This document shows positions 1,643 to 27,077 of a stretch of 64,000 nucleotides of DNA, in pieces; position 1 is the stretch's first letter, and each line of letters starts with the position of its first letter. The notes beneath the pieces were generated by a model, which did no database searches, had not been told where the DNA came from, and saw nothing but the letters and a program-made list of their open reading frames with translations. Both the position numbers and the translations under genes were made by a program. The DNA comes from Escherichia phage V18. Location: sequence record NC_041937.1; one strand, 5' to 3'.

Positions 1643-1672
1643 TTGACAAAAGTGTTATTAATCTGATATTAT
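1643..1672 (+). promoter_or_regulatory. sigma70-like promoter
   Basis: TTGACA at 1643-1648, 17-18 bp spacer, ATATTAT at 1666-1672; upstream of 1747..2013. Confidence 0.4.
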
Positions 1673-2005
1673 CGGTCAGATATCTATAAACTAGGAGAAC
1701 TAGATATGCTTAAATTTTTATTGTTGAAGATAAAGATATTGTCCAGTTGTATGCAAACGAGAATCATAAAGGTATGATTCTAAAGAAGGCAAGCAACCTT
1801 CATGAAAACACAATTCAACCTGGTGATGTAATTAAGATCTGTGGTTATATGATACCAGACTCCTTGATGAAAATAACCCACCACTGGGGGTCTAATCCGT
1901 TCCTTTTTGAAAAGTATTGGGATGTTGAGTCACTTATTGCAGAGAGTGATGATGCCTTCCATTGCAGCATCCAACCATCTTGCAGAATAACTAACAGGAG
2001 GGTCT

Positions 2006-3145
2006 TTGAGTAGAGAATATCCACTTATTGAGTCCATAGATTGTCTGGCTGATCTTCTTGAACCTGACGCTATAGTTTATTATGACTTCGATCAGGTTGC
2101 ATATCAAGCTGCAGCAAGTTGTGAAAAAAGGACAATTGAGGTAACACACAAAGCCTCCGGACGTAAGAAGATGTTTAAAACACGAACAGAGTTCTGGGGG
2201 CGGCAGAAGAACACCGTTGGTGGTTGGTTAAAAGCTGAGAATACCAACCGTGAAGCTGCATGTAAAAAGGCTGGCAAGGAGTTTATTCCGTGGACACGAG
2301 AAGATTTCGATGTCTTGGATATCCAAACCCCTGATCCTGTAGAGAACTGCTTGCACACAATTAAGTGTAAAGCCAATGCAGTCCTTAATTATCTCGGTAT
2401 TCCGGAAGATCGGTGCGTGGGGGTACTTGGAGGCACAGGTAATTTCAGACTAGATCTTCCCATGCCGGAAAGATATAAAGCCAACCGTAACAATACTCTT
2501 CGACCACTGCTGCTTGGAGATGCAAGACAGTATCTCCAAAAGCAGTATAATGCTCAAGTGATCAACGGTATCGAGGCTGACGACTGGTTAGCTATCCAGC
2601 AATTTGAAGGTTGGAACCACTACCAAAAAACAGGTAAGTTCAACAAGTTTATTATCTCTATTGATAAGGACCAAAGAACACTACCGGGGCTTGTGTTCGA
2701 TCCCATGCGAAACGATAAGGGAGATTTTGTAAGGGAAACCCCTATGCTGATCGATAACGGTATGGGGAACATCTTCATGAAGCCTAATGGAGAGGTTGGT
2801 GGTTACGGAATGCTGTTCTTCGGATACCAAATGCTGTGTGGTGACTCTGCTGACAACATCAAGCCGTATCAAGGACTTATCGGTAAGGGTAAGTTCGGAG
2901 ATGCCTCAGCATTCTACCTACTGTCTCAGTGCAGCACTCCAAAGGAGATGTGGGTGGCTATTATTGATCAGTACAAGAAGTGGTTCCCGAAAGGTGTTGT
3001 TAAGTATACTGACTTCAATGGTATTGATCGTAGAATTTCCGTAGGTCAATGGATGAGTATAATTTTTGACTGTTTGTATATGAAGCGAACATTCAATGAT
3101 CAAACAAAACTTGTTAACGTTCTTAGAAATGTTGGAGCAATTTGA
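2006..3145 (+). CDS. 5'-3' exonuclease / flap endonuclease (T5 D15 / Pol I 5'-nuclease family)
   Basis: 379 aa; acidic clusters YYDFD, RYKANR, GIEADD, CGDSADNIKPYQGLIGKGKFGDA (helix-hairpin-helix region). Confidence 0.7.
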   Translation: MSREYPLIESIDCLADLLEPDAIVYYDFDQVAYQAAASCEKRTIEVTHKASGRKKMFKTRTEFWGRQKNTVGGWLKAENTNREAACKKAGKEFIPWTREDFDVLDIQTPDPVENCLHTIKCKANAVLNYLGIPEDRCVGVLGGTGNFRLDLPMPERYKANRNNTLRPLLLGDARQYLQKQYNAQVINGIEADDWLAIQQFEGWNHYQKTGKFNKFIISIDKDQRTLPGLVFDPMRNDKGDFVRETPMLIDNGMGNIFMKPNGEVGGYGMLFFGYQMLCGDSADNIKPYQGLIGKGKFGDASAFYLLSQCSTPKEMWVAIIDQYKKWFPKGVVKYTDFNGIDRRISVGQWMSIIFDCLYMKRTFNDQTKLVNVLRNVGAI

Positions 3146-3473
3146 TGACTAAAAATTCTGTAGATAACGCAATTATGGAAGCTGTTTTTGAGGATGATCA
3201 CACAACAGGGACACTTAAAACAAAAAATACATTCGTTGTTGCCACAGGTATGTGGCGGTTGTATGAAGATGACACCATTTCATACATCCTGTACACGGAT
3301 GATTACGCAGATGACCGTGTATGGTCTGCTGTTTTAAAAGAGGATTGTGAGCTGATTGAGGGCGAGCGGTTATGCATGTTCACCAGTGTGGAAACAGATG
3401 TTAAGCTTTGCTCTCTCGTCTTGTTCAAAGATAAGGCTTATGCTCCTGATGAAGGAGAGGAGGATGAGGAAGC

Positions 3474-4103
3474 ATGAGAGAGCGTCTATTATCCATAGAC
3501 CAGTCGTTGACACACACAGCTTGCGTTGTATGGGACGATGGAAAGCCTGTTCATAAGGTTGTGTTACGAACTCAAAGCTCATCTGCAAAAGAGATGAAAC
3601 CAGGGACGGTTTCTTTTGCAACAGCTGCTGAGCGTATTGACTGGATCTGCAAACAGGTCAGATATTATATCCACACGCACGGCGTTGACACCGTAGTTAT
3701 GGAAGGGCTTTCCTTTGGATCACGCGGGGATGCCACACGTGAACTGGCTGGGTTGTTTTACGGTCTTGAAGTTATGCTTTGGGATGCCTTAGCTGATTGT
3801 GAAAATGACGGCCTGTTTAAGGTCCACACAGTGACACCAACAACTGCCAAAAAGTTTGCTCGTAGTCATCTTCCTGAGGAACTTGCTTTCGAGGAGAAGA
3901 AAAAGCTTGACAAAAAGACAGGTAAAGAGCATACTGTGAAGAAACCTGTTACGATGGATAAAAAGTTGATGGTTAAGGCCTGCGAAGTATCTGAACCTGG
4001 GTTCCTAGATGGGATCAATTTGGTACAAGGTAAGGCCGATCTCGCAGATGCTTATTGGATAGGCAGGGCGCATCTGGAGGGATTATCGCAAAGCGTAAAA
4101 TAA
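3474..4103 (+). CDS. RuvC-like Holliday junction resolvase (putative)
   Basis: 209 aa; N-terminal LSIDQSLTHTACVVWDD, central VVMEGLSFGS, C-terminal DLADAYWIG, matching the spacing of RuvC-fold catalytic acidic residues. Confidence 0.45.
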   Translation: MRERLLSIDQSLTHTACVVWDDGKPVHKVVLRTQSSSAKEMKPGTVSFATAAERIDWICKQVRYYIHTHGVDTVVMEGLSFGSRGDATRELAGLFYGLEVMLWDALADCENDGLFKVHTVTPTTAKKFARSHLPEELAFEEKKKLDKKTGKEHTVKKPVTMDKKLMVKACEVSEPGFLDGINLVQGKADLADAYWIGRAHLEGLSQSVK

Positions 4104-4660
4104 GAAAGAAAGCTGTCAAAGCCCCCGTTCATAACGGGTGGTTAAAAGATTCTAAGGACATAGCCAACTTTCGAAAAGAATTGTCAGAGGAGCAGGATGG
4201 TCTTGATCCGATCTTGTGCGAGCCACTTCGTAAGCCTTGTTTGGATCATGACCATCTAACTGGTCGTTGCAGGGGTGTTTTGTCACAATGCACTAATACC
4301 TTTGAGGGGTATGTGCTTAAATACTGGATGAAATACTGTAACGAGTATACAGATTGCAGTTTATCAGAGGCGTTGCGCCGGATGGCTGACTATTTGGAGA
4401 AAGACTACAGCGACTTCCCGCTCCACAAAAACTACAGAGATGATATGACAAAGTTCTTGAGGAGATGCTCTAAAGCTACGATCATTGCACGAGCAGAATC
4501 AGATCTCAATCTTGTCATTAATCCAGAGTGCACCAAGCATGAGGCTATTGAGTTCTACATGCAGGAGTTTATAAAGAAAACTGAGGAGAGAGATTTCTAT
4601 GGGGATGAAAAAGGTATTCAATCCTTGCGATTCAGTTCTGATCAGGATGAAATACCGTAA
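4055..4660 (+). CDS. endonuclease VII-like (T4 gp49 family) protein
   Basis: Motif CEPLRKPCLDHDHLTGRCRGVLSQCTN (C..C…DHDH.TG..RG.L..C.N). The start is a non-ATG codon overlapping the upstream gene, so the true start is uncertain. Confidence 0.55.
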   Translation: MDRQGASGGIIAKRKIRKKAVKAPVHNGWLKDSKDIANFRKELSEEQDGLDPILCEPLRKPCLDHDHLTGRCRGVLSQCTNTFEGYVLKYWMKYCNEYTDCSLSEALRRMADYLEKDYSDFPLHKNYRDDMTKFLRRCSKATIIARAESDLNLVINPECTKHEAIEFYMQEFIKKTEERDFYGDEKGIQSLRFSSDQDEIP

Positions 4661-4826
4661 CTGGAAAGGTGTTGTTGCAGATCGCTGCGTTACTGAGCCT
4701 AATTTATGGTTTGGCTCTACAGAGTATCATAAAGAAGAGCAGTGGTTGATGCATGCCTTTGATGTAGACAAGGGCGAATATCGTGACTTCGCTTTAAAAG
4801 ACATTCTTCAGTTTTACTAAGGAATC

Positions 4827-5816
4827 TTGACGATGATGACAAAGTTAACTCTTGAGCAAATTTTAACACTAAAGCAACAGGGATACACTAATAGACAAAT
4901 TGCTCGTGAATTTTTAGGCCGTGAGTCACGTGAGAGCTGGATCCGACTACAGCTTAAACGTGCACAGGAGAATATGTCAGAGATTGTAGGAGAAGCAACG
5001 GAGCGCTTCCTTGAAGAGCACAAAGGTGCTAAAGTTTGGGTGTATGATACAGAGACATCTCCAACAAACGGCTGGTTCTTTGGGCACTATAAGACCAACA
5101 TTCAAACCTGCGGTATTGAAATTATGCCCTACATGCTAACTTTCGCAGGTAAGTGGTTAGACAGTCCTAGTGTGGTTGACTGCGCTCTTCCCGATTACAA
5201 AATGTGGGATGAGGATATTCACAATGATCTCGAATTGATTCAGGATTTGTGGTATTATCTGGATAAATGTGATGTCGCAGTAGCCCACAATTCAGGTTTT
5301 GACTGTGGGTGGGCCAACCAACGATTTGCATTTCACGGGTTGCCTCCAACAAGCCCCTACAAAGAGGTTGACACCCTTAAAATGATCAAGAAGGCATTCC
5401 GTTTGAATGCAAACACTTTGGAGTATGCATGCAAATACTTCCAACTGGCCCGACAGAAACTGATTGATCACACATTTGAAATGTGGATCAAGTGTGTCCA
5501 TGGTGATCTTGAGGCATTTAAACAGATGCGGGAGTATAATGTTGGTGATATCCTGTCTCTGGAAGGACTGTATTTGCTGGCTCGCCCGTTTGCTAAGCAG
5601 CACCCAAACATGTCATTGTACTATCAAGACGAGGAGCCAAAAGTTCGTTGTCCACGCTGTGGTGGAGAACACCTTCACGAGGAAGAAGCTTTGGCGTATA
5701 CTCAACTGAGTGCATTTAAAACATACCGCTGCGAAGGTTGTGGATCTGTTGTTCGTGACCGTAACAACATCCGCACCAGAGAAGAAATGAAAAATACCCT
5801 GATTCAGATAATCTAA
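4827..5816 (+). CDS. DEDD-family 3'-5' exonuclease with N-terminal HTH-like segment
   Basis: 329 aa; WVYDTETSP (Exo I), VAHNSGFDCGW (Exo II), YNVGDILSLEGLY (Exo III, YxxxD); N-terminal QGYTNRQIAREF; C-terminal CPRCGG…CEGCG zinc ribbon. Confidence 0.55.
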   Translation: MTMMTKLTLEQILTLKQQGYTNRQIAREFLGRESRESWIRLQLKRAQENMSEIVGEATERFLEEHKGAKVWVYDTETSPTNGWFFGHYKTNIQTCGIEIMPYMLTFAGKWLDSPSVVDCALPDYKMWDEDIHNDLELIQDLWYYLDKCDVAVAHNSGFDCGWANQRFAFHGLPPTSPYKEVDTLKMIKKAFRLNANTLEYACKYFQLARQKLIDHTFEMWIKCVHGDLEAFKQMREYNVGDILSLEGLYLLARPFAKQHPNMSLYYQDEEPKVRCPRCGGEHLHEEEALAYTQLSAFKTYRCEGCGSVVRDRNNIRTREEMKNTLIQII

Positions 5817-5824
5817 CAATTATA

Positions 5825-5850
5825 GGGAGGCTTGCGCCTCCCTTTTCCTT
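5825..5850 (+). terminator. rho-independent terminator
   Basis: GGGAGGC-ttgc-GCCTCCC stem-loop followed by TTTT, just after the stop of 4827..5816. Confidence 0.5.
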
Positions 5851-6678
5851 TTGGAGGCACTTTGAGCAAGAAAGAGTCCAACGACAAATACTACACAAAC
5901 CCTGAGTATGCAGAATATCTTGTTGGTAAAGTAAAAGATAAGTATGGGAATTGTGCATACGTTGAGCCTTCTGCTGGAAGGGGTTCTTTTTCAAAACTAT
6001 TTTCAGAGATACTGTCGTACGATTTAGTACCAGATCCTGAATTTGAAGGACCAACACCGTGCATTCAGGCAAACTTCTTGGAGGTGCATCCCAAGGCAGA
6101 TGTCTTCATAGGTAACCCACCATTTGGCAAGAATTCATCCTTAGCTTGCAAATTCTTTAACCATTGTGCATCATTGCTAGAGCTTGGAGGGGCTATAGCC
6201 TTCATCTTGCCACGGACATTTGAAAAAATTTTTTTCAAACAAACTGGACATGTCGATGCACCTTGTCTACAGCGAAAGGTGCCCTAAGAATTCGTTTTTA
6301 CTTAATGGCAAACCTTATGACGTGCCATGTGTTTTCCAAATTTGGGAGAAAAAGGCGTGCAATAGGGATCCTGTAGAGATTGGAGAGAATAAGTTATTTT
6401 CTTTTAGCACACCAGATGACTACGACTTCTGTGTAAGACGTGTTGGGTATAATGCTGGAAAAGTATTGGGGGATGATGACCCAAAATCTGAAGAATCAAC
6501 ATATTTCATAAAATCTTTAGTTAACGGTGTTGACAGAGTGTTTGCTGAATGCTATTCTTCTTTTCAAGAAGAAGCAGGTAAGACTGCTGGAATGAAGAGT
6601 ATAGGTAAGAAAGAACTACAATACATTTTGGAGACCAGGTATGATCAAAAGCATAGACTTGACCAAAGAACTTACTGA
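5832..6678 (+). CDS. N6-adenine DNA methyltransferase, frame interrupted near 6220-6290
   Basis: AdoMet motif EPSAGRGSF and catalytic IGNPPFGKN in ORF 5832..6287; continuation (…CVFQIWEKK) in ORF 6220..6678 in another frame; break in an A6T7 homopolymer stretch. Start codon uncertain. Confidence 0.5.
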
Positions 6679-7099
6679 TGCAAAAGCTTTTGGTGAGACA
6701 GCGGTACAAAGAGGACAGGCGATGGGACTGGCACTACCTTTCGTCTTAAAAGAGCACTTTACAGATTTTCAACTTATCAAAGGTGATAAGGGAATGCTTA
6801 TCCTGGAGCATAAGTTGAGTAAGAAACGCTATAAAGTCGTTTTTAATTCTAAAGCTCCAACAAAACTGGGATTCAGAACTTACAATCTTAACCCATCCTA
6901 CACTAAGGGTGTTGGAAGGGTAGAACAACAGCATTTCAGTGCCAGAGCTTCTTTAGCCCCTTTGATGCTAAATTTCTCAGGGGTGGCTTTAGGATACCTT
7001 GATAAGAAAAGGGTTCTTCATGTTCGTTTCACAGACTTTGTAACGCTTTTAGCTAACAACGAGGTTGATGAGAAGGGACGTGTAAAAACAAACTTCTAA
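6641..7099 (+). CDS. hypothetical protein
   Basis: 152-aa ORF, no recognisable motif. Confidence 0.3.
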   Translation: MIKSIDLTKELTDAKAFGETAVQRGQAMGLALPFVLKEHFTDFQLIKGDKGMLILEHKLSKKRYKVVFNSKAPTKLGFRTYNLNPSYTKGVGRVEQQHFSARASLAPLMLNFSGVALGYLDKKRVLHVRFTDFVTLLANNEVDEKGRVKTNF

Positions 7100-7325
7100 T
7101 AACGCATAGTATGATTGGAGACCGAAATGACACAATGACACTAGAGTTAACAATTCCAGACAGCTTTTCAGAAAACTTTATCCCAGAAATGATGAGTAAG
7201 ATGCGATCATTGCTTGATCAGATTGAGGAGGCTGTTTGGGAAGACGATGCTGTAGTGGCTAACGAGCTGGTAGATAAGTGTAAAAGTATTATTGATGCAG
7301 TTGAAGAATACCACGGAGGTTTTTA

Positions 7326-8527: not shown

Positions 8528-8728
8528 AATGGGCAGATGTTCTAAAGGTGGCGATCCTGTAGTCAGATATGGTGACTGGCTAGAGGTGTATGATCTAGAA
8601 GGTAAGCTAGTGTATGCCTCTAGGATCACCCAAGATATGTGCTCTGACATGTTCAACAGATACCTTGCATTTAAGGCCAACATAAACCCAGACGAAATTT
8701 CCAAAATTAAAACAAGGAGAGCTAAATA

Positions 8729-9712: not shown

Positions 9713-9741
9713 TCCTATCACAGCGATAGGTAACTTTTGTG

Positions 9742-9770
9742 TTGACTAATAGTATCAGATAATCTATAAT
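9742..9770 (+). promoter_or_regulatory. sigma70-like promoter
   Basis: TTGACT 9742-9747, 17 bp spacer, TATAAT 9765-9770. Confidence 0.5.
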
Positions 9771-9771
9771 A

Positions 9772-10272
9772 ATGGCTCACTTTGTTAGTGAGCCAGAAAT
9801 GGAGACAGATATGAGTAATGTTATGATTCCTAAAAAGACATTTATTTCAGTTACTTTGGATTTCCTATCTACCGTTCCAGGGTTTAACGTTCGCACACGA
9901 AACGGTCTCCGAGCTGCACTCTTTGCCGTAGGGTTTGATTTAAAAAGTATTGATGTTCTTCGTGGAAAAAACGTTCGATGCAAAAATAAGCCAACACATT
10001 ATCGAAAGGCAGATGTATTTGCTGGTGTCATGCGTGCAGACTTTAGATACCCGCAAATGTATAACGGTGTAGATATTTTAGATGTAGATAAAGCACCCGG
10101 TGAGGCAATGCTTGTTCAAGATCTTCCGTATGATATCCCTGTAGAGGATCGTGTTAATGTAAGAAAGTATACAAAACAATCTGAAAAGGCTGAAGATATT
10201 CATATTGTTGATGAACCTTTCAATTTTGAAGATCTGCATCGCCTGGAAAAATTATTCGGTATTGAAAGCTAA
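9772..10272 (+). CDS. hypothetical protein (true start probably at the internal ATG near 9811)
   Basis: The ORF ATG at 9772 lies 1 nt after the -10 box; GGAGA at 9802-9806 precedes the ATG at 9811. Confidence 0.35.
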   Translation: MAHFVSEPEMETDMSNVMIPKKTFISVTLDFLSTVPGFNVRTRNGLRAALFAVGFDLKSIDVLRGKNVRCKNKPTHYRKADVFAGVMRADFRYPQMYNGVDILDVDKAPGEAMLVQDLPYDIPVEDRVNVRKYTKQSEKAEDIHIVDEPFNFEDLHRLEKLFGIES

Positions 10273-12832: not shown

Positions 12833-12852
12833 GGGGCTTCGGCCCCATTTTA
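12833..12852 (+). terminator. hairpin with UUCG tetraloop after nrdA
   Basis: GGGGC-ttcg-GCCCC followed by ATTTTA. Confidence 0.4.
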
Positions 12853-13956: not shown

Positions 13957-14235
13957 ATGAGCTGCGAAAAATCTTTTTTCATCATCATTTACGGTAAGGA
14001 TAACTGCCCACACTGTGTCAGAGCAAAAGAATTTGCAATCAGCAAAGGTCTGCCTTTTGTATATAAGACACTTGGCGATGGCTACACAAAAGAAGAGCTT
14101 ATTGAGAAGTGTAGTCCAATTGTCCCCAGAACGTTGCCGCAGATCTTCTTAGAAAGCGATCTTGACAGTATCCATATAGGCGGTGCCGACGATTTCATCT
14201 CTTTTGTTAAGAATGGTTTTGGAGAGAAAAAGTGA
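13957..14235 (+). CDS. glutaredoxin / NrdH-like redoxin
   Basis: 92 aa; CPHC active site in IYGKDNCPHCVRAKEF; between the aerobic and anaerobic RNR genes. Confidence 0.7.
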   Translation: MSCEKSFFIIIYGKDNCPHCVRAKEFAISKGLPFVYKTLGDGYTKEELIEKCSPIVPRTLPQIFLESDLDSIHIGGADDFISFVKNGFGEKK

Positions 14236-16354
14236 AAGTTGTAAAACGGGACGGTAGAGAAGAGTTCTATAACGGAATTAAGGTGATCAAGGCGGCAGAG
14301 TCCGCCTTACTTGAGTCTGGACATACTGAAGAAGAAGCTTACCGGATCGCCTGCGCGGTTAATGAAGTTGTTGCTAACAATCTACCAACCGACCAGTGCA
14401 CGATCTCTGTAAAAAATATCCATATCCTTGTTGAAGATGCTCTTATGGATATGGGTTTAAAATGTGCAGCCAGAGAATACATCCAGTATAGACAGACAAG
14501 AGATAATAACAGAGAGGCAGGTGGAAAACTGCTTGCAGATATTAGTGGCTTCTTGGATCGAACTTGTGATGAATTTACAAAAGAAAACGCAAATAAGCCC
14601 ACTAATCATGTACACACTCATCGTGACCTGCTTGCAGGCATCCTTAGCAAACACCTTGCATCAACACAGATCCTGCCAGACCGTGTTTCAGAAGAGCACA
14701 ATAAAGGCTTCATCCATGTGCATGATCTTGACTACTTGATCAGTCCGTTAACAAACTGTTGTTTGGTAAATTATCCAGATATGTTGGAAAACGGATTCAA
14801 CATTGGCAACGCCCATGTCAGTAAGCCGAAGTCAATAGGGGTTGCAACAACAATCCTTAGCCAAATCTCTAGTGCGGTAGCTAGTGCTCAATATGGTGGT
14901 CAGACTATGAGCCATATTGATCATTATCTGGCACAGTATGCTGAAGCGACCTATGAGAAGAACCTTAAATTTTGCCAGGAACATTGGTTGCCAGATGCTG
15001 AGACTGTTGCAATGCAAATGACAGATAAAGACGTGTTTGACAGCATGCAGACGTTGCTTTATCAGATCAACACACTAACCTCGGTAAACGGTAACCCCTT
15101 TTATCACATTAAGTTTAGGTTTGGACACTTCGGTCTTTGGTAGAATGATTACCAAAAACTACCTGAAAGTCCACAAAATGGGTCTTGGTGAAGAACGTAT
15201 TACACCTGTGTTCCCTAAAGTGCTGTTCTTCCTAGAAGAGGGTGTCAACATGAACCCTGGGGATCCTAACTACGATTTGAAACGATTAGCTCTGGAATGC
15301 TGTGCAGAACGTATCTACCTGACTTCGTATCTGTACCACTAAATAGAAAAGTGACAGGCTCGACAGATGGCAAAGTAACGAGCATGGGATATGTAGAAGT
15401 TTCTTATCGAAATATAGCGACCCTGTAACAGGCGAGGAGAAATACCTTGGCAGATTTAACTTAGGCGTTGTTAGCCTTAACCTGCCAATGATTGCGGCAA
15501 AAGCTAAGACGGAAGGTGTTGATTTCTTTGCAGTTCTTGACGAATACTTGGATCTTGCATACGAGGCTCACCTTGTAAGGGTTAATCGTCTAAAAGGAAC
15601 AAAGGCGGGGCAGAACCCCATCATGTGGTGTGAAGGCGCTCTTGCTCGCCTGGATCCCGAAGAGAGTATTGATAAACTCTTCTATGACGGGTACGCTTCC
15701 ATCAGTATTGGGTATATCGGTGTGTATGAAACCTGTCAGATTTTGGGTAGAGAAGGCGACAAGGCTTTAGCTCTTGGAATCCTTCAGCACATGAGAGATG
15801 CTTGTGAGCGATACAAGAAGGAAAGTAGACTAGCATTTAGCTTGTACGGCACTCCTTCTGAGAGTCTATGCTATAAAGCTGCAACCTGTCTGGATCGTGA
15901 ATATCCGGAAGTGTTGAAGCACGAGCATGAATATCTCACCAACAGTTTCCATCAGCCAGTATGGATAAATAGCTCTCCTTTTGATAAGTGGGAGTATGAG
16001 GAAGGTTTTGCTATGATCTCCTCTGGTGGCAACATCGGATACGTAGAGACACCTAACCTGAAAAACAACCTGGATGCTTTAGAGGCCCTTGTTGACTTCG
16101 GGTATAAACACATTATGTATTTTGGTATTAACCAACCTGTAGATAAATGTCTCAAGTGTGGTTTCTCTGGTGAGTTCAGTGCAACAGCTAAAGGCTTTGT
16201 ATGCCCAGAGTGTGGAAACCATGAAGAGGGAACGATCAGTGTAATTCGACGTGTGTCTGGATACCTTTCCAGTCCTAACTCCCGTCCTTACAATAAAGGT
16301 AAGCAAGCGGAAGTTATCGAGCGAGTTAAGCACTACGGAAGTTGTGGTTGCTGA
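14232..16354 (+). CDS. nrdD: anaerobic ribonucleotide reductase (class III), reading frame broken in three places (possible pseudogene or indel errors)
   Basis: N-terminal ATP cone in frame 0 (14232..15143); middle segment …ITLSLGLDTSVFGRMITK…CCAERIY in frame +1; …PDFVSVPLNRKVTGSTDGKVTSMG in frame 0; C-terminal …CRSFLS…GRFNLGVVSLNLP…RVSGY (glycyl radical) and CLKCG…CPECG in frame +2 to 16354. Fragments sum to about 700 aa. Confidence 0.75.
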
Positions 16355-16530: not shown

Positions 16531-17004
16531 ATGAACATTGTCGGATACACAGAAATATCTTACACCGAAGGGCCAGGTATTAGAACTGCCTTGTGGGTAT
16601 CTGGGTGCCCACACGCTTGCCCTGGTTGCTTTAATCAGGCATTTTGGTCAAAAGATAAGGGGAGGGAGTTCACTGAAGAAGATTTGCAAAAAATCTTGTC
16701 AGATTTAGATAACCTGTCTGTGTGCGGTATCTCTCTGCTGGGTGGAGAACCCTTAGCATACTATAATGAGCCAGATATTATTAGCCTGATGGAGAAAATT
16801 AAGGAAAAATTTGGTGACAAGAAAACTATTCTTGTATATACTGGGTTCACATTTGACCATATCTCTAGTGATGTTCTTAAACTGGCTGATATCATCATTG
16901 ACGGTAAGTATGTAAAAGATTTACCAACCAAGAAACCGTTCCGAGGCAGCGATAACCAAAGAATGTTTAAAAAAGTAGCAGGCGGTTGGGTTCAGGTAGA
17001 CTAG
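16531..17004 (+). CDS. nrdG: anaerobic RNR activating enzyme (radical SAM)
   Basis: 157 aa; CPHACPGC (CxxxCxxC radical SAM cluster motif); directly downstream of nrdD. Confidence 0.8.
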   Translation: MNIVGYTEISYTEGPGIRTALWVSGCPHACPGCFNQAFWSKDKGREFTEEDLQKILSDLDNLSVCGISLLGGEPLAYYNEPDIISLMEKIKEKFGDKKTILVYTGFTFDHISSDVLKLADIIIDGKYVKDLPTKKPFRGSDNQRMFKKVAGGWVQVD

Positions 17005-17007: not shown

Positions 17008-17037
17008 TTGACAAAGCTTGGTTTAGATAGGTATAAT
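17008..17037 (+). promoter_or_regulatory. sigma70-like promoter
   Basis: TTGACA 17008-17013, 18 bp spacer, TATAAT 17032-17037; shares extended similarity with the promoter at 18400. Confidence 0.5.
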
Positions 17038-17068: not shown

Positions 17069-17182
17069 ATGGCTAAAAAAGCCTTGAAGAAGGCGTACAA
17101 AAAAGAGATTGCGCTTGAGCTTAAGAAAAAACACAAGCGTGAAAAGAAACATCATGAAGATGAAGAGGGGGTGCAACAGTGA
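17069..17182 (+). CDS. small lysine-rich basic protein (37 aa)
   Basis: ATG at 17069 preceded by AGAGGAGG; translation MAKKALKKAYKKEIALELKKKHKREKKHHEDEEGVQQ; below the 60-aa ORF-track cutoff. Confidence 0.3.
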   Translation: MAKKALKKAYKKEIALELKKKHKREKKHHEDEEGVQQ

Positions 17183-18360: not shown

Positions 18361-18381
18361 AAGGGTGGTTATTCCACCCTT
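18361..18381 (+). terminator. hairpin after phoH
   Basis: AAGGGTGG-ttat-TCCACCCTT perfect stem. Confidence 0.4.
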
Positions 18382-18399
18382 AAATATCTAAAACAGTTG

Positions 18400-18428
18400 T
18401 TGACAAATAGGTAAGCTTTAGATATTAT
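18400..18428 (+). promoter_or_regulatory. sigma70-like promoter
   Basis: TTGACA 18400-18405, 17 bp spacer, TATTAT 18423-18428. Confidence 0.5.
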
Positions 18429-18828
18429 TATCGGACAAAACAGAGAGAAGGACAGTATGGCTACAATACAAGAGAAACTGAATAAAATATACTGCCTGTT
18501 TGTCTATAACGGCGAGACAATTTTGGCAAATAAAGGATCCAAGAATGTGTGGACCAAGGACAGCGGTGGTAATATAATTAACTTAGCGTTGCTACGTGAG
18601 CGCCGACACAGATTCTTTATCGAGTCTCGAATTATTGAAAGCAGCACTTGCTACAGAACAGGCGATAAAGTAATTGTTGACAATGATACGTGGTATGTGG
18701 TAGACTGGCAATCATTGAGTTGTGATGCTTCTGACAATCGTAAGTATTCCATAGTGATTGCTAAATAAAGGTAAATGTGAATCAGGTTTAAATAAATAGC
18801 TTTCAACTTCCAATATTAAGGATTTCTC

Positions 18829-19875: not shown

Positions 19876-19887
19876 ACATTAATTCTA

Positions 19888-19910
19888 AAGCCCTCTTCGG
19901 AGGGCTTTTA
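19888..19910 (+). terminator. rho-independent terminator
   Basis: AGCCCTC-ttcg-GAGGGCT followed by TTTTA. Confidence 0.5.
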
Positions 19911-19926
19911 TGATCTGGAGATTTGC

Positions 19927-20460: not shown

Positions 20461-21013
20461 AGATGAGTGCTAAGGACAAATTACACCAGTTAGCGCTAAA
20501 ACGTCCTGTAACGCTCCCTGACGAGCTTAACTCCATTTATGATGCGATTGTAGGGGAGATACAAAATAAAGCGTTAGCAGGCTTTCTGGGATGCGGATTT
20601 TCGATAAATCTACCCTCGCATCTCTCAGATTACTTCCCGCACATTGTTGGAGATTTGAGAGCAGGAGGTCTGCAGGTAGATGTTGTTGGCATCTCCCCAG
20701 AGAAAAATAACACGGTTGCCTACTTGACAGTAACCTGGTAGTTGTGTATTGTTGTTCTCAACAAGGGGGAGTCATTTATGTACAAGTCATTTTCAATTTA
20801 CTCAAGACAGGGGAAACACTACACAGAGATCCTGATCACTCAGAAAAAATCTGTAGAAGGTGAGTGGGAATATCACCATAAAATGTTGCGTCCAGATTGG
20901 GTTTTTGATAGACTTATTGCCATGATCCCTCTTGGAGAAGTATATCCTCTGACAGGCGGGAGGGATGTTTGGGATTTAATTGCTTACATAGATTCATTTA
21001 AGGAGCCCAGTGT

Positions 21014-21415: not shown

Positions 21416-21454
21416 TAATTTATCTTACCAGGGACGGTAGAAGCAGGAGGTAGC

Positions 21455-21688
21455 ATGAAAGTTAAATTTCTTACAGATTTAGGGTACCCTTCCTTGGTTG
21501 ACTGTGTTGGTAAAATTGTGGAAGCAAAACGGCTATCTGCAAACGAGAATGTTGTCCTGGTTAAAGGGAAGGATTTACTAGCTGCAGGTGCAGAGTCTGG
21601 CAGGATCTCTCCTGATTATATGTATTACCTATCTTTAAGTAATCTGCCAGAGCGAGGCGGTAAAGGCCTTGAAGTTGTGGAGGAGTGA
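21455..21688 (+). CDS. small acidic protein, paralog family A (DL[IL]AAGA motif)
   Basis: 77 aa; MKVKFLTD… KDLLAAGAESG …EVVEE. Confidence 0.45.
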   Translation: MKVKFLTDLGYPSLVDCVGKIVEAKRLSANENVVLVKGKDLLAAGAESGRISPDYMYYLSLSNLPERGGKGLEVVEE

Positions 21689-22072
21689 CAGGTATGCTTC
21701 TGATTAACTGGGAAGACCTCTATGGGCCTTTATGGGAAAAGAGCATGTATTTAAAATGGTGCGTTAATTTAGGGAGGCCTTCCAGTGTTTCAAGCCATGT
21801 TTATTGAGATGCTATCTGGGGTATTGTTACTGGTAGCCATCTTAGGTGGTGCAGTTCTGATGTATAACTATCTTGAAAAAGGAGACAGCAATGGTAAAAA
21901 ATAAATCTTTAGAGCAGGCTGAAAACCTTCTCCACGAGCTGGTAAAGGAGTGGAAAGTTGAATACTCAGATTTTAATGCACGAGAGGGTGAAGATTATTG
22001 GCCTACGGAGCGCTCAGAGGGCGAATGGTATCAAGATTTTATAGAGTGGTTATATCAGACGTGCGATGAGGG

Positions 22073-22537
22073 GTGACGATGTTTGTTAAATATGTAAAAA
22101 CGTGCCTCAACAGTCTTGGCAGAGAGCATTGGTACACCTTGCTTGAAAAAGGGGAAATTTTAACAAAATCTGGAAAGATAACTTTTATACATAGTAAAGG
22201 TAAAGACCCGTCACGACTTGTTATAGATGATTACGTTACAGGTGTGACGTTCGAGGTCTCTGTGGAGAGGTTAATACGCAGAGCTGGCGGCCCTTATGAC
22301 CGAAGAGAGTATGTTTTCGATTCCGTTACAGAGATGGGGGAGCATCCGTCTTTAATGTTCAGGATGGTAATCAGAGATATGAGGTCATCTATAGATAGGA
22401 TTGTAAAGGACATTAAGGAACCTTTTAGAGTAAAAGTTAAGAAGTTTTTCGATTCTAAGATTAACATACTCGCCGTTGCACTAGGTGTAGTTCAACTTCT
22501 GTTAATTTTGCACTATTTTGAACTACTATTTAAGTAG
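22073..22537 (+). CDS. hypothetical protein with C-terminal transmembrane segment
   Basis: 154 aa; C-terminal ILAVALGVVQLLLILHYF hydrophobic helix. Confidence 0.35.
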   Translation: MTMFVKYVKTCLNSLGREHWYTLLEKGEILTKSGKITFIHSKGKDPSRLVIDDYVTGVTFEVSVERLIRRAGGPYDRREYVFDSVTEMGEHPSLMFRMVIRDMRSSIDRIVKDIKEPFRVKVKKFFDSKINILAVALGVVQLLLILHYFELLFK

Positions 22538-22599
22538 TAGTTGAGATATGGCACAAAGGATGTGCCATAGTGAAATAAACTAAGAAAGAGGTAGAGAGA

Positions 22600-22947
22600 A
22601 TGCCAAAGATTAAAACGTTATTACTGTGGGTAACTGTTTTAGCTTTTATAGGGTACTGGACTTGGGAAACTGAATTAAAAGATATAGGATATACCAGTCT
22701 TGAGAGCAAGGCGTGCATTGGCATAACCGATGCGTTCAGGCAAAATGCTATGGATCACGAATGTGTTGATGCAGATATAGATGAGAAACTGTCTAAGGAC
22801 AAAGATTTTTACCATGGGCATGCTTTACTTGATAGTGGTGACACTGTAGAGTTCTGGTCGTGGTTTCGTGAAGATGGAACAATAAAAACAGCAGTAAAGA
22901 TCTCTAACAAAGAGTTAATGCTGTTGCAGCAAAAGGAGGCTCAATGA
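22600..22947 (+). CDS. hypothetical protein with N-terminal signal/TM segment
   Basis: 115 aa; LLLWVTVLAFIGYW hydrophobic N-terminus. Confidence 0.35.
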   Translation: MPKIKTLLLWVTVLAFIGYWTWETELKDIGYTSLESKACIGITDAFRQNAMDHECVDADIDEKLSKDKDFYHGHALLDSGDTVEFWSWFREDGTIKTAVKISNKELMLLQQKEAQ

Positions 22948-23484
22948 TCTGGATATCCTATGCTGATGGCACCATGCTGTATACTGCAGGTACCAGATAT
23001 GAAGTTCAGGAGAACGATAAAAAATTTATCGTAAAAACATTTGACAAGGACGACAACCTTTTGCTAGAATTGACTTACAAGGTTGGAGAGGTATCCAATA
23101 TCCAATTGGATTGTGGTCATAAAGATAACCCACTCAAAAAACCTGGAATAGGCAAGGCTTCAGAAGAACGTTTGTCTCGTATTGCAGAAAGCGTTTCTAC
23201 ACAAAAATCTAAGAAGGGGACTAGAAAATGAAAAACTTACGTTTTAACACTGGCGCAATGGAAGAAGCAATATTCTAAACCAGGCGGGAGGGTTTTATGA
23301 AGCACTATTGCCTGTCTGGTAGAATGGGTACAGATTGTGATTGGGTTTTCTTAAAACTTGTCAGCATTCGAGAGTTCATCCCAGAGGAAGAGCAAGAAAG
23401 CGAGCTGATGTCATGGATCAACCATTACGGTAACACTTTTCGGCATGTTAAGGTAGAAGAGTTGCCAAGCGAGGCTGATTGACT

Positions 23485-23574
23485 ATGATTGCATCAATAT
23501 TAACGTTTATGGGTGGCGTGGCATTCGGATTCATTGTTTGCCTGTTTATAGTGATTATGTCTATGCGAGGCTGA
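23485..23574 (+). CDS. 29-aa hydrophobic peptide (putative)
   Basis: ATG at 23485; MIASILTFMGGVAFGFIVCLFIVIMSMRG; fills the gap between 23297..23482 and 23578..23949. Confidence 0.25.
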   Translation: MIASILTFMGGVAFGFIVCLFIVIMSMRG

Positions 23575-23945
23575 ATTATGAAACTTTTTGAGTGGTTTAA
23601 AAAGTTTAAATATAAAGCTGTAGCCATCGTGCCGTGGTCAATTCAGTGGGTTGATGAAGGTGGTCTACCAATACCTGGTGACAAAGATACTGGGTACTGG
23701 ATTATGATGGAGAACGGGTTTGGAAAGCGAAAGTATACGTGCACAAACTCTACTCGATCTGCCACTAACTGGTCTAAATTCTACTGGGGAGCCAACGAGT
23801 GGGGAAGATACGCCACCAAATCAATGGCACTTATTGGTATAGCAGAGTACATTGCAGCCAGAGATAGGGTTGGAGACACTTATTACTATACTGCGGACGA
23901 TATTCGTAACAGTGTTTACGTCCCACAACCACCTGATGGAGACCG

Positions 23946-24173
23946 TTGATGAAAGTTAAAGTTTTAGATTCAAGCTTCTATATTGGTCAGGAGCCCTTAG
24001 TGGGGAAAGTGTTTACTGCTGTCCCTAACGAAGATTACCCCGACCTTTTAAAAATAAAAGGGGCAGATCTTATTGCCGCTGGTGCATCTCATGAATGCTT
24101 TGACAGTCAGTGGACCTACAACTTTGCCCTAGGTGAGGATGTAGAGATAGTGGAGGACGATCATGAAGGTTAA
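23946..24173 (+). CDS. small acidic protein, paralog family A
   Basis: 75 aa; MMKVKVLD… ADLIAAGASHE …VEIVEDD. Confidence 0.45.
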   Translation: MMKVKVLDSSFYIGQEPLVGKVFTAVPNEDYPDLLKIKGADLIAAGASHECFDSQWTYNFALGEDVEIVEDDHEG

Positions 24174-24417
24174 AATTCTTGATTCTAACGTCTACTTGGG
24201 ACAATCCTTCCTGAAGGGAAAGGTAGTTCCTGCGGTATACTTTGAAGGGTTGCCGTGGGATGATCCTGTGCGGCAACATCACAGTTATGTAGGCCACAAC
24301 GTAGTGTTTATCTTAGGATCAGACCTGATCGCTGCTGGTGCACCGGAATATTATTTCGGGGAAGAATCCTATTATGCCTTTGGGGCAGGGTCAGATGCAG
24401 ATATTGTAGAGCTGTGA
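24163..24417 (+). CDS. small acidic protein, paralog family A
   Basis: 84 aa; MKVKILD… SDLIAAGAPEY …DADIVEL. Confidence 0.45.
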   Translation: MKVKILDSNVYLGQSFLKGKVVPAVYFEGLPWDDPVRQHHSYVGHNVVFILGSDLIAAGAPEYYFGEESYYAFGAGSDADIVEL

Positions 24418-24429
24418 TGGGTAACCGTT

Positions 24430-24825
24430 GTGAAAAATAAACTGTTCAAAGTTACAATGAAAATTCGCGGAGCTTGGAGCGTAAAGCAAGGGCGTATCCC
24501 AGAATTTGAGAAAGACTTCTACGTAGTCTCCACCTCGGAGGAGGCTGCATGCTGGCAGGCTGGCTATGCCTATGCAAGAACCTGGTACGAAGGATACCAG
24601 ACTGGGGGCTATGACGGAGAAATTATCAGCAAGGGTGTGGAAGAAATTAATGTGTTGACAAGTAAAAATTTTGTTATAGTGCATCCAGATTCCAGAGTGA
24701 AGCATTACTGGAATGCCAGAACAAAAACTTGGACACCGTTTGCAGATTCTGCTACACCACTTTTAAACCAAAAAGCTCTTGACTCTGCCCCGAGCTACGG
24801 GGTTGTTGAAGAAAAGCTAGACTGA
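24430..24825 (+). CDS. 131-aa protein, paralog family B
   Basis: …VIVHPDSRVKHYWNARTKTWTP…; paralog of 26635..27030. Confidence 0.45.
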   Translation: MKNKLFKVTMKIRGAWSVKQGRIPEFEKDFYVVSTSEEAACWQAGYAYARTWYEGYQTGGYDGEIISKGVEEINVLTSKNFVIVHPDSRVKHYWNARTKTWTPFADSATPLLNQKALDSAPSYGVVEEKLD

Positions 24826-25139
24826 AACAGTGAGGTGCCACTATGATGGATTTAGTTCTGAATATTGATAACGCAGGGGAGTTTAAAGACGATGGTGTAA
24901 CAAGCATTGACCAACCATGCTCTGCCAAGATTGACTCAAAATGGGCCTACAAGTTTGACGGAGAGATCTTCGCAAATGATGAGAAGGTTGTAGATGCTGC
25001 AGCCATTTTGAACGCTCTAGGGTACGACCCTGTGAATTCTTTGATCAAGGATCCTGTTGAGTTTGCAGAGTATGTTCGAAAAATGGCAGATCTTGCTGTA
25101 GATATTTTAGATACTATCGATAATAAGCTGTAAAAACTG

Positions 25140-25168
25140 TTGACACAACGCTTCAGATTTAGTATCAT
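25140..25168 (+). promoter_or_regulatory. sigma70-like promoter
   Basis: TTGACA 25140-25145, 17 bp spacer, TATCAT 25163-25168. Confidence 0.4.
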
Positions 25169-25217
25169 TGTTTTCAAAGAGAGATAGTTATTCCCTCTTC
25201 CTTAAAAGGAACACGTT

Positions 25218-25538
25218 ATGCAAATTGAAATCACTGGCAACAATGTAGAAATCACAGAAGGTATGGTATCTTTTATTTCCCGCAAAATGTCCAAGCTGGA
25301 GCGTTTACATCCCTCTGTCAACTATGCACGTGTGAGTGTAAAAGTTGAAAATGATCACCAGGAAGTTATGGCGTTCATTTTTGACAATTCTGGAAAAGAA
25401 GTTATTGCCAAAGCTAAAGGCAGTGATGCTTACGAGGCAACTGACCGTATGGTAGATGTTGCAGCACGTCAGCTGGCTAAATGCGGTGGAAAGAAAGGTA
25501 AGGGGAAAGGCAAAGTAAAGATTGACTTTGGAGAATGA
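25218..25538 (+). CDS. hypothetical protein with lysine/glycine-rich C-terminus
   Basis: 106 aa; MQIEITGNN…; C-terminal GGKKGKGKGKVK. Confidence 0.35.
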   Translation: MQIEITGNNVEITEGMVSFISRKMSKLERLHPSVNYARVSVKVENDHQEVMAFIFDNSGKEVIAKAKGSDAYEATDRMVDVAARQLAKCGGKKGKGKGKVKIDFGE

Positions 25539-25675
25539 GGTGCTACAATGGGTGTGATTAAGAAATTAGTCACAAATGTAGAGATTGCATGCTTTGAAAT
25601 TATGTTTGCAATCGCAGTTGTAGTTAATGTGTTAGGTTACGGCTATTAATATCAAATAATTGAGGAGACCTCTAA

Positions 25676-25945
25676 ATGAAAATTAAATTATTCAAAACTG
25701 AGCTGGCAGACAAAAACTGTGGACTGGTTGAAGGCATGATTGTTGAAGCACAACCAGTGGACTATATGAAGGTGGTTCGTGATGCCCTAGGTGAAGGTTT
25801 TGATCTGATGGAGCCAGCTCTGCGAGAAGATGTTATCGAGATGGCTAAAAAGCACACACCTGAAGGTTTGGTGGTGTTTGTTGCACCGGGTAACGGAGAA
25901 GAGTTGATTGTAACTCCGGATGTGTATGAGATTGTAGAGGAATAA
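25676..25945 (+). CDS. small acidic protein (family A-like architecture)
   Basis: 89 aa; MKIKLFKTE… ending YEIVEE. Confidence 0.4.
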   Translation: MKIKLFKTELADKNCGLVEGMIVEAQPVDYMKVVRDALGEGFDLMEPALREDVIEMAKKHTPEGLVVFVAPGNGEELIVTPDVYEIVEE

Positions 25946-26276
25946 TCCTGCTTGGATTAGCATACTTCCTCGATAAGGAAGATTTGTAATTATTTGTGGG
26001 AAAGGAATCCCAATCTCTTACCAGAGGTGATACTATATGATTGTTTATTTTAAAACTTCAGGTGGATACCCTGATTCTCAAAGCTTGATCGGAAAAACGT
26101 GCACAGCATACTCACCTCTTGATGAGGAGGTAAGCGATATTCTACGAAATATGTATCGGATTGACCCCCAAGAAGCTTTGATCAAAACCTTGTATTTGTC
26201 AAGGGCTCAGATATGAAGTCTTTGGGAGCATTCCCTGAAGCAGATGATGATGCCGTTTATTCGTTCATGACTCCTT

Positions 26277-26636
26277 TTGAAGCTATGGTTGTTGGGTGAT
26301 AATATGAAAGTACGCTTTATTGGTGAAACAATTCCTGTGCATCTCCGGTCTCCTGAGGATTCTGCAGATCTTGCATCTCAAAAGGCGAGAGGTTATGATA
26401 AGAAAGTAACCTCAACCGATGTAGTGCTTGAGGCTACTAGCTACCTGACCCTGCTGCATTCTTTAATCATTATGGGTACTATTTCAGCAACCTGATGAAT
26501 ATCGGTGAGCTTGTATTTATTAGTGGTGGAGAAATTGTTAGCAAGCTCGGTGGCGATCCAGATGTCTTTCATGAAACCTGTCCTTTTGCATTTGTGGTAG
26601 GTTCAGATGTGGAAGTTATTGAGGAGGTGCGGTAAT
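26277..26636 (+). CDS. family A paralog, apparently frame-disrupted
   Basis: N-terminus MKVRFIGE… in ORF 26277..26495; C-terminal half LVFISGGEIVSKLGGDPDVF…VVGSDVEVIEE in a small ORF 26496..26636 in another frame; mirrors 24163..24417. Confidence 0.35.
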
Positions 26637-27030
26637 GGTAAGCCTATACCGTGTCGAGTATAGCTCGGATACTGTATACAACGTAAGAAGCAAAGATCGC
26701 AGCGACAGAGTGCAAGAAATGTATGTTCTTGCCGACAGTCCGTTATCTGCAGCGTTCAAGGCAGGGGCTCTTGCATCTCGTTGGAAATTTGAAGGTGGAT
26801 CTTTCTATGAAGAAACCCTTGAAGATTCTGTTGTTATTTCTTCTGTAGAGGTTTCAGATGACTACGAAGGGAAAAAGTTCGTAATGCGGCACCCACACAG
26901 CAATATTGCGTACTACTGGGACGTTCTGAACAACGAGTGGACCCCAGATCTTCAGAAGGCTACTGTGCTAACACCGTTTTTGGCAGATAAGTTCCCACCA
27001 GAAGGTAATTTATCTGCACTGTTTCAGTAA
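26635..27030 (+). CDS. 131-aa protein, paralog family B
   Basis: …VMRHPHSNIAYYWDVLNNEWTP…; paralog of 24430..24825, same length. Confidence 0.45.
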   Translation: MVSLYRVEYSSDTVYNVRSKDRSDRVQEMYVLADSPLSAAFKAGALASRWKFEGGSFYEETLEDSVVISSVEVSDDYEGKKFVMRHPHSNIAYYWDVLNNEWTPDLQKATVLTPFLADKFPPEGNLSALFQ

Positions 27031-27048
27031 TTTTCTTGCACACAGGTG

Positions 27049-27077
27049 TTGACAACGCCAACCCTGTGTGAAATAAT
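27049..27077 (+). promoter_or_regulatory. sigma70-like promoter flanked by inverted repeat
   Basis: TTGACA 27049-27054, 17 bp spacer, AATAAT 27072-27077; CACAGG…CCTGTG inverted repeat brackets the -35 element. Confidence 0.35.

Follow-up and report, generated by a model that had tools for sequence, protein, structure and literature searches.

The window analysed here, a stretch of 64,000 nucleotides from Escherichia phage V18 (NC_041937.1), belongs to a Vequintavirus (rV5-like E. coli myophage) and is ~97% identical to many records. Six plus-strand sites of the form TTGACA/TTGACT-N17-18-TAnnAT had been claimed in a first-pass annotation of the sequence, and all six were recovered at exactly those positions (Table 1). 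The -35 hexamer is TTGACA at five of them and TTGACT at one, A2 and T6 of the -10 hexamer are retained throughout, and the spacers stay within 17 +/- 1 bp. At 27049 the first base of the -10 hexamer is non-canonical, which counts against a promoter at that site. The six sites are intergenic, located -4 to +44 nt past the preceding stop codon, with a Shine-Dalgarno sequence and ATG following after 28-49 nt, although only ~11% of the plus arm is non-coding. ORF93 of the window is frameshifted; the rV5 copy served for the Pfam search.

Table 1. Predicted promoters and terminators of the window, with their rV5 counterparts, core elements (-35, spacer length in nt, -10) and number of consensus bases out of 12.
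Feature	rV5 counterpart	Position	Strand	Core elements	Consensus bases	Remarks
Promoter	P093	1643..1672	+	TTGACA (1643-1648)-18-TATTAT (1667-1672)		TG-extended -10; -35 overlaps final 4 nt of upstream ORF; ATG at 1706, 33 nt past -10
Promoter	P107 (RefSeq P106)	9742..9770	+	TTGACT-17-TATAAT		preceded by hairpin 9714-9730 (after thyX); followed by leader hairpin 9774-9794
Promoter	P118	17008..17037	+	TTGACA-18-TATAAT	12/12	starts 3 nt past nrdG stop; small-ORF ATG at 17069, 31 nt past -10
Promoter	P121	18400..18428	+	TTGACA-17-TATTAT		preceded by PhoH-distal hairpin (~18362-18383); ATG at 18457, 28 nt past -10
Promoter	P144	25140..25168	+	TTGACA-17-TATCAT		49 nt 5' of RaiA/HPF-like protein gene (Pfam PF02482)
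Promoter	P150	27049..27077	+	TTGACA-17-AATAAT		TG extension; 8-nt inverted repeat CACACAGG/CCTGTGTG brackets -35
Candidate promoter	P090	624..652	+		10/12	TG-extended
Candidate promoter		20724..20752	+	TTGACA-17-TATTGT	10/12	ATG 26 nt downstream; PhagePromoter-annotated in Gotham
Site		23041..23070	+	TTGACA-18-TAGAAT	11/12	TG-extended; within ORF 22944-23231; hexamers conserved in 6/6 genomes
Candidate promoter		25522..25549	+	TTGACT-16-TACAAT	10/12	3' end of RaiA-like gene
Candidate promoter	P156	28667..28695	+	TTGACG-17-TATAGT	10/12	
Candidate promoter	P162	30330..30358	+	TTGACA-17-TAGTAT	10/12	
Site		31140..31167	+	TTGACA-16-TAAAAT	11/12	TG-extended; past last annotated plus-strand gene
Rho-independent terminator	t099	5824..5852	+			
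Rho-independent terminator	t109	12833..12851	+			between nrdA and nrdB
Rho-independent terminator	t122	19890..19911	+			after ClpP-like gene
Bidirectional terminator hairpin	at t158 position	29430..29461	.			after ORF158
Minus-arm promoter	P164	33840..33868	-		11/12	
Minus-arm promoter	P168	34588..34616	-		11/12	
Minus-arm promoter	P185	39494..39521	-		11/12	followed by leader hairpin CGGGAAAACTTCCCG
Minus-arm promoter	at P186 position	39804..39831	-		11/12	
Minus-arm promoter	P192	41353..41380	-		12/12	
Minus-arm promoter	P205	45288..45315	-		12/12	
Minus-arm promoter		50732..50760	-		12/12	absent from rV5 list
Minus-strand site		51167..51196	-		11/12	possibly intragenic; absent from rV5 list
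Minus-arm promoter	P224	51932..51960	-		11/12	
Minus-arm promoter	P231	57952..57980	-		11/12	

The same six sites are carried by phage rV5, where they are listed as predicted sigma-70-type promoters (Kropinski et al. 2013, Virol J 10:76, Table S4, PMC3606486). They match one-to-one the 'regulatory' features of the rV5 RefSeq record (NC_011041) and the PhagePromoter features of phage Gotham. The six promoters are therefore already known, having been predicted and annotated in rV5 in 2013, and their detection in the window is correct but ordinary. The rV5, Gotham and RefSeq annotations were all predicted from one consensus, so that their agreement is not independent evidence. Gene-relative positions, hexamers and spacer lengths are the same in rV5 and in the window, and the sequences differ little or not at all, with 0-1 base differences over the listed 46 nt for P093 and P107. 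The window represents a different Vequintavirus isolate than rV5: the spacer of P118 differs at 5 positions, with no substitution in its hexamers, and P121 differs at 1.

As a full set, the list of six in the first-pass annotation does not hold. It misses the 11/12 sites at 23041 and 31140, several 10/12 sites and the entire minus arm, where 10 sites with at least 11 of 12 consensus bases span 33.8 to 58 kb. The site at 23041 may be a promoter internal to its ORF or may have arisen by chance. The one at 31140 faces the ORF-poor region between the arms and is followed by a terminator-like hairpin (31190-31202); among the six genomes compared, this region hardly varies. Rfam yielded no match, whether the whole window was searched with gathering thresholds or the inter-arm region at E<=1. 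The six promoters had also been proposed to divide the plus arm into operons. The boundaries are plausible, but the six alone are insufficient to define them, given that the arm carries four terminators (5824, 12833, 19890 and 29430) and at least six further promoter candidates. Promoters and terminators of the plus arm are not paired one-to-one, so that its transcription units overlap or lie nested within one another.

Sites with at least 11 of 12 consensus bases number 18 in the window, while 100 dinucleotide shuffles gave an expectation of 1.88 +/- 1.19. A position weight matrix with background statistics, the check that the first-pass annotation had proposed, came out clearly in favour of the sites. 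Using an approximate E. coli matrix and the lowest score among the six as cut-off, 38 sites were obtained against 3.3 +/- 1.8 for the background. All 18 sites are co-oriented with their own arm (p about 4e-6), as are 36 of the 38 matrix hits.

Conservation was followed in six Vequintavirus genomes, which are close kin. Variable columns amount to 3 of 72 in the hexamers against 68 of 344 in spacers and flanks (Fisher p=8e-4), and to 0 of 36 in the -35 hexamers. The sole hexamer change in this panel is a 3-nt deletion in ECP26, which restores TTGACA-N17-TATTAT, and spacer lengths are retained in the relatives, this deletion included. Judged from these alignments, purifying selection acts on the hexamers, and the spacers drift. 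As to other genera, Mydovirus AV124 and NDO71 and Seunavirus KE22 carry TTGACA-N17-TATGAT 5' of their homologues of the small ORF, the copy of NDO71 having a wholly different spacer. At the gene junctions that hold P118 and P121 here, no counterpart was found in Mydovirus and Seunavirus, because the genes abut there and leave no equivalent intergenic gap. The P118 analogue in these two genera sits farther upstream, in or beside the 3' end of nrdG.

The -35 and -10 hexamers, the spacers and the co-oriented placement upstream of genes are all of the sigma-70 (RpoD) housekeeping type at the six sites. We thus consider with a probability of about 85% that they are genuine sigma-70-type promoters of an rV5-like coliphage, a reading drawn from their presence and enrichment, their orientation and geometry, and the selective conservation of their hexamers, all of which were observed. 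Their proposed use by the host RNA polymerase is backed by the enrichment, the strand concordance, the intergenic position ahead of a Shine-Dalgarno sequence and ATG, and the selective conservation of the hexamers. From these features we infer actual initiation at the six sites, its strength and its early or middle timing. A search of the literature on Vequintavirinae retrieved no TSS, RNA-seq time-course or in vitro transcription study.

Published work infers that rV5-like phages have no RNA polymerase of their own, so that near-consensus hexamers would be bound by E. coli Esigma70. The holoenzyme would contact the -35 TTGACA and the -10 TAnnAT, 17-18 bp apart, assisted by the TG of the extended -10 at 1643 and 27049. 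Transcription would then start ~7 nt beyond the -10 hexamer, giving 5' UTRs of ~20-40 nt with a Shine-Dalgarno sequence. The family comprises at least 30 such predicted promoters on both arms of the window, always oriented with the genes, and the units of the plus arm would be nested and partly read-through. P093 would drive recombination and nuclease genes, and P107 the ribonucleotide reductases (predicted: ORF107/108 and nrdA). PhoH would depend on P118, ClpP and Dam on P121, the RaiA/HPF-like factor on P144 and small ORFs of unknown function on P150.

That the sites are mere consensus matches arising by chance in AT-rich intergenic DNA is hardly credible. The genome has 57% A+T, and a simple scanner at >=9/12 reveals a modest excess only (51 vs 39.5 and 56 vs 46.1); however, the excess is about tenfold at high stringency, the strand concordance is complete (18/18) and the hexamers are conserved while the spacers change. 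Chance is effectively refuted. The question of timing is less clear-cut. Early transcription is plausible, considering the consensus strength and the downstream genes (nucleotide metabolism and small unknown ORFs). The sites may also be real sigma-70-type promoters that are not specifically early, being active throughout infection or mainly in the middle phase, or tuned by phage-encoded factors, for instance the Srd-like anti-sigma gp11 or the product of ORF158, a 'transcriptional regulator'; the plus arm would then not be a simple set of early operons. We regard this as possible, though clearly less probable than not. In rV5, sigma-70-like promoters occur genome-wide and also 5' of late genes (P036, P051, P074 and P081), and 'early' can therefore not be derived from the sequence. 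This spread was seen by the rV5 authors as an argument against class-specific promoter recognition (PMC3606486). Genes of the plus arm serve DNA metabolism and are typically delayed-early or middle, and the lack of pairing between terminators and promoters points the same way. On the other side, near-consensus hexamers require no activator, and an analogous motif was attributed to early, possibly middle genes by the Certrevirus authors (PMC7344957).

The first-pass annotation further stated that the sites at 1643, 17008 and 18400 share flanking sequence. From exact words and all-pairs identity, only the last two are marginally alike, and no extension common to the three was found. The word GTTGTTGACAAA occurs only at 17004 and 18396, with AGTCTTGACAAA as counterpart at 1643, and ATTATCGG only at 1668 and 18427, with ATTATCGT as counterpart at 17008. 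Flank identity between 17008 and 18400 is 21/36, which ranks second of 595 pairs. It was nevertheless considered whether the three form a sub-family, either as duplicated promoter cassettes or through a common operator (GTTG...TTGACAAA / TATTATCGG) recognised by a phage regulator. Besides this identity, GTTGTTGACAAA and ATTATCG common to 17008 and 18400, it would be in line with the ECP26 deletion, which turns the -10 region of P121 into GGTATTATCG, similar to GATATTATCG of P093, and with the homing-endonuclease genes adjoining some promoters in relatives. We nonetheless judge a sub-family of this kind very improbable. The 1643 site is average against both others (11/36, with a mean of 10.7 for promoter pairs), and the next-best, unrelated pairs reach 20 and 19. 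ATTATCG is not enriched, with 13 occurrences on the two strands together vs ~11 expected by our own base-composition estimate, and 5 of its 7 bases belong to the -10 hexamer. Moreover, P093 has ATTATCGT in rV5 and FV3, P121 has ATTATTGG in FV3, and most large indels that distinguish the relatives are over 200 nt away from the nearest promoter. The promoter-early stem-loop (PeSL) modules of phage T4 are duplicated promoter cassettes, in which a promoter with a hairpin recurs beside variable gene insertions. Mobile cassettes of this type were rejected here: no long repeat is common to the six promoters, none of the repeat families contains them, and indel breakpoints are not clustered at promoters. 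Duplicated promoter modules occur in the window on the minus arm only (repeat family D2). Secondary structure of leader and core showed no enrichment across the promoter family (mean z ~ -0.5), with single cases only.

Extension signals across the whole family are weak, consisting of an A-tract and G/TG before the -35 hexamer, and of TG before the -10 hexamer in about half of the sites. TG before TTGAC is not specific to promoters, preceding it at 9 of 35 promoters and at 13 of 79 non-promoter TTGAC sites (p=0.30), and the A count upstream of promoters in the window is 3.6 vs 2.7 per 9 nt. At most, the shared extension is a weak A-tract and TG before TTGAC, as in the Certrevirus consensus. There is but a slim chance that P118 and P121, and loosely P093, constitute a genus-specific sub-class, whose flanks (GTTG before TTGACAAA, and TATTATCG(G) through the discriminator) would be a putative site for a phage regulator. 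Inverted repeats bracket the -35 hexamer at 27049 and in the D2 repeats of the minus arm; if the sub-class were true, it would, together with these repeats, suggest that Vequintavirus early promoters are shut off through an operator not recognised so far.

Strong early promoters of phages T4, T5 and lambda, like E. coli consensus sigma-70 promoters that have an extended -10 or a proximal UP subsite, are read by the host holoenzyme in its unmodified form as infection begins. The six sites resemble them in the layout TTGACA-17 bp-TATAAT, the occasional TGn extension and the A-rich upstream DNA. MotA-box middle promoters and T4-type late TATAAATA motifs play no part at the six sites, whose function is deduced. 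Closer to V18, a putative early promoter, AAAA(N3-4)TGTTGAC(N17-19)TATAAT, was described in phages CB7, CR3, CR8 and CR9 of the sister genus Certrevirus (Buttimer et al. 2020, PMC7344957). These belong to the same subfamily, Vequintavirinae, lack a phage RNA polymerase, and have sigma-70-like -35 and -10 hexamers, TG before TTGAC and an A-tract interpreted as UP element (PMC7344957). TGTTGAC is present at five of the six sites, and the entire pattern fits 18400 and 25140. The comparison is made at motif level with another genus, and both A-tract and TG are weak in the window.

The importance of these results lies mostly in annotation, with a checked promoter and terminator map of the V18 isolate as practical yield. 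They confirm the reliance of rV5-like phages, in wide use as candidates for biocontrol and therapy, on near-consensus host-type promoters along both arms.

The first-pass annotation had proposed six plus-strand promoters of the sigma-70 type with 17–18 bp spacers, and their coordinates and hexamers were all confirmed. With a weight matrix approximating E. coli sigma-70 and a spacer penalty, 38 sites scored no lower than 27049, the weakest of the six at 12.15 bits, compared with 3.3 ± 1.8 in shuffled sequences. Likewise, 18 sites in the window matched at least 11 of the 12 positions of TTGACA and TATAAT, against 1.88 ± 1.19 in 100 dinucleotide-preserving shuffles. All eight of these on the plus strand lie within 1–31.2 kb and all ten on the minus strand within 33.8–58 kb, and 36 of the 38 matrix-detected sites point the same way as the genes in their own arm. 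For the plus arm, eight plus-strand sites where 0.46 were expected correspond to a Poisson probability of about 3e-8. The site excess and the strand statistics exclude chance matches to the consensus.

Plus-strand genes (endolysin, nucleases, thyX, nrdAB, nrdDG, PhoH, ClpP, Dam and many small ORFs) extend to about 31.2 kb and minus-strand genes start at about 33.4 kb, two arms which correspond to rV5 transcription units 82–163 and 164–238. Each of the six sites starts between -4 and +44 nt relative to the stop codon of the upstream gene, and an ATG with a preceding Shine-Dalgarno sequence follows 28–49 nt past its end; the non-coding share of the plus arm is only about 11% on a generous ORF map. 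A TGn extended -10 was found at 1643 and 27049.

All six are listed in Table S4 of the rV5 study, in which 33 sigma-70-like promoters, 11 of them with an extended -10, and 20 terminators were predicted (Kropinski et al., 2013, PMC3606486). They appear as 'Sigma70-type promoter' features in RefSeq NC_011041 and as PhagePromoter features in Gotham. In the sister genus Certrevirus, which has no phage RNA polymerase, the putative early promoter is AAAA(N3-4)TGTTGAC(N17-19)TATAAT (Buttimer et al., 2020, PMC7344957), a pattern that the promoter family of the window fits loosely at most. The annotations in rV5, RefSeq, Gotham and Certrevirus are predictions not based on transcription start sites (TSS), and a literature search for TSS data on Vequintavirus or Vequintavirinae found none. 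The six sites are real and look functional, and they had been annotated as sigma-70-type promoters before; their interpretation as host-type promoters is essentially the published one.

Segment 16000–22000 (6 kb) matched 123 phage records at 90–99% identity, nearly all of them Escherichia phages of the genus Vequintavirus (rV5-like myophages). Among the matches, nineteen records named 'Campylobacter phage' share about 97% identity with this E. coli phage; mislabelling or contamination probably explains them. Conservation of the six sites was analyzed by per-site alignment with their homologues in Gotham, rV5, FV3, ECP26 and SophiaRose, a small and closely related panel. Only 3 of 72 hexamer columns varied, none of them among the 36 columns of the -35, compared with 24 of 104 in spacers and 44 of 240 in the 20-nt flanks (Fisher p=8e-4 against spacers and flanks; p=5e-4 against spacers alone). 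The comparison is fair because conservation in the other genomes is not forced by picking sites for their consensus match in one. A single 3-nt deletion at P121 in ECP26, which removes one TAT unit and leaves TTGACA-N17-TATTAT, accounts for all three variable columns. At 17008, 5–7 of 18 spacer positions differ in rV5, FV3 and ECP26 with both hexamers intact.

Outside the genus, no intergenic gap was found at the nrdG and PhoH junctions in Mydovirus and Seunavirus. A TTGACA-N17-TATGAT site precedes a homologous small ORF (MSKKALRKAY / MAKKALKKAY) in AV124, KE22 and NDO71; in NDO71, which has neither nrdD nor nrdG, the hexamers align and the spacer is entirely different. This site is a positional analogue of P118. 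In Mydovirus AV124 (L006 5607–5635) and Seunavirus KE22 (L007 5484–5512) it falls within the nrdG 3' coding end and would be a gene-embedded promoter.

Flanking sequence shared by 1643, 17008 and 18400 had also been proposed. Exact copies of GTTGTTGACAAA are limited to 17004 and 18396, and those of ATTATCGG to 1668 and 18427. When 36 flank and spacer-edge positions were compared among 35 candidate promoters (595 pairs; mean 10.7, sd 3.2), 17008 and 18400 shared 21 positions and ranked second, with unrelated pairs reaching 20 and 19; 1643 was only average with both (11 each). ATTATCG, which mostly overlaps the -10 hexamer, was not enriched (13 copies versus about 11 by our own base-composition estimate). 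The count of A per 9 nt upstream of the -35 was 3.6 at promoters versus 2.7, and 3.4 at non-promoter TTGACA sites. A G directly precedes TTGACA at 16 of 35 sites and lies two bases before the -10 at 18 of 35. TG stands before TTGAC at five of the six sites and at 9 of all 35 candidates (p=6e-4 versus dinucleotide frequency) and is not promoter-specific, non-promoter TTGAC on the same strands showing it in 13/79 (p=0.30). Family-wide, the flanks hold little information. Given these word positions, pair identities and weak flank signals, the three are therefore not a sub-family; the shared extension was overstated, with some resemblance between 17008 and 18400 at the most.

An origin of the six sites from mobile cassettes or duplication is unsupported, no repeat family containing them. 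Most large indels among relatives are over 200 nt away from the nearest promoter; the exceptions are a few intergenic insertions of homing endonucleases. In SophiaRose, inserted GIY-YIG genes adjoin the 16358 and P121 intergenic regions, and an HNH gene of FV3 lies just upstream of P090. Small-ORF blocks of about 800, 144, 215 and 227 nt are missing from the window at 21726, 23251, 23762 and 892 when it is set against the compared relatives. The nrdD gene (14232–16354) is split in two ORFs by several 1–2 nt indels versus rV5 (net -1), especially in 15091–15409. The first, at 15091, falls where insertions split nrdD in FV3 (801 nt, HNH gene included) and in SophiaRose (259 nt); the window itself has no insertion at that point, and Rfam detected no intron anywhere in it. 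ORF93 (1706–1780), the first gene after P093, is truncated at 23 codons by AAA, one A short of the AAAA of five relatives, just past its start codon. The breaks in ORF93 and nrdD suggest either that the source sequence has homopolymer or indel errors or that these are true pseudogenes.

A 51-nt repeat family on the minus arm consists of duplicated promoter modules (37184–37234, 40578–40628, 40913–40963, 41533–41583; two copies 100% identical). It carries a TTGACA-18-TAAACT promoter (minus-strand 40942 and 41562), with GATGGCC/GGCCATC enclosing the -35. Secondary structure is not a family trait (mean z -0.5 for leader and for core), and individual promoters are strongly structured: 9742 (leader z=-2.8) and 27049 (core z=-4.75, MFE -17.6 kcal/mol). 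At the latter, P150, an 8-nt perfect inverted repeat conserved in relatives (CACACAGG/CCTGTGTG, 27039–27068) brackets the -35; it could act as an operator, or end the upstream gene as a T-less hairpin. Stable hairpins a few nt past the -10, at the predicted transcript 5' end, were observed for several promoters, among them 9742 (9774–9794), 39521 and 41380 (39456–39493 and 41316–41353, with CGGGAAAACTTCCCG in common) and 42018 (about 41962–41980); such stem-loops may have a 5' stabilising role. Three imperfect 47-nt direct repeats in minus-arm intergenic DNA (43460–43645; spacing 74 and 65 nt), with long AT-rich hairpins, look like iterons.

Between the convergent arms, an ORF-poor region of about 2.3 kb (31013–33380) matches the box marked 'non-coding' in the rV5 paper (PMC3606486). 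It gave no Rfam match at E<=1 and contains an 18-nt perfect inverted repeat with nested repeats (32527–32544 / 32660–32677). The Gotham record end and its 459-bp terminal repeat appear to map to the homologous region, by an approximate coordinate offset, so this may be where the physical ends of the genome or its packaging signals lie. The endolysin gene body (144–608) recurs as an exact 465-nt copy at the far end of the window (63532–63996), adjoining the rIIA/rIIB/helicase block, and relatives are collinear only to about 63530. Either a genuine duplication or rearrangement, or an artefact of assembly or wrap-around, may account for the copy.

The full promoter set of the plus arm is larger than the six.

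Promoters and terminators of the plus arm
Feature	Position	Strand or arm	Remark
Candidate promoter	624	+	rV5 P090
Candidate promoter	1643	+	rV5 P093
Candidate promoter	9742	+	rV5 P107 (P106 in RefSeq)
Candidate promoter	17008	+	rV5 P118
Candidate promoter	18400	+	rV5 P121
Candidate promoter	20724	+	
Candidate promoter	23041	+	inside ORF
Candidate promoter	25140	+	rV5 P144
Candidate promoter	25522	+	
Candidate promoter	27049	+	rV5 P150
Candidate promoter	28667	+	rV5 P156
Candidate promoter	30330	+	rV5 P162
Candidate promoter	31140	+	11/12, TG-extended; past last annotated plus-strand gene
Terminator	5824-5852	plus arm	t099
Terminator	12833-12851	plus arm	t109
Terminator	19890-19911	plus arm	t122
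Terminator	29430-29461	plus arm	

The segment 31140–31212 is almost invariant in six genomes and has a terminator-like hairpin (31190–31202) with a T-run about 20 nt after the promoter; a very short non-coding RNA could be transcribed from it. The first gene after P144 encodes a RaiA/HPF-like protein (PF02482, E=4e-15), and Pfam gave no match for the first genes after the other five promoters. Hairpins devoid of a T-run lie upstream of 9742 and 18400. Promoters and terminators of the plus arm are unpaired; its transcription units are therefore likely to be nested, with read-through.
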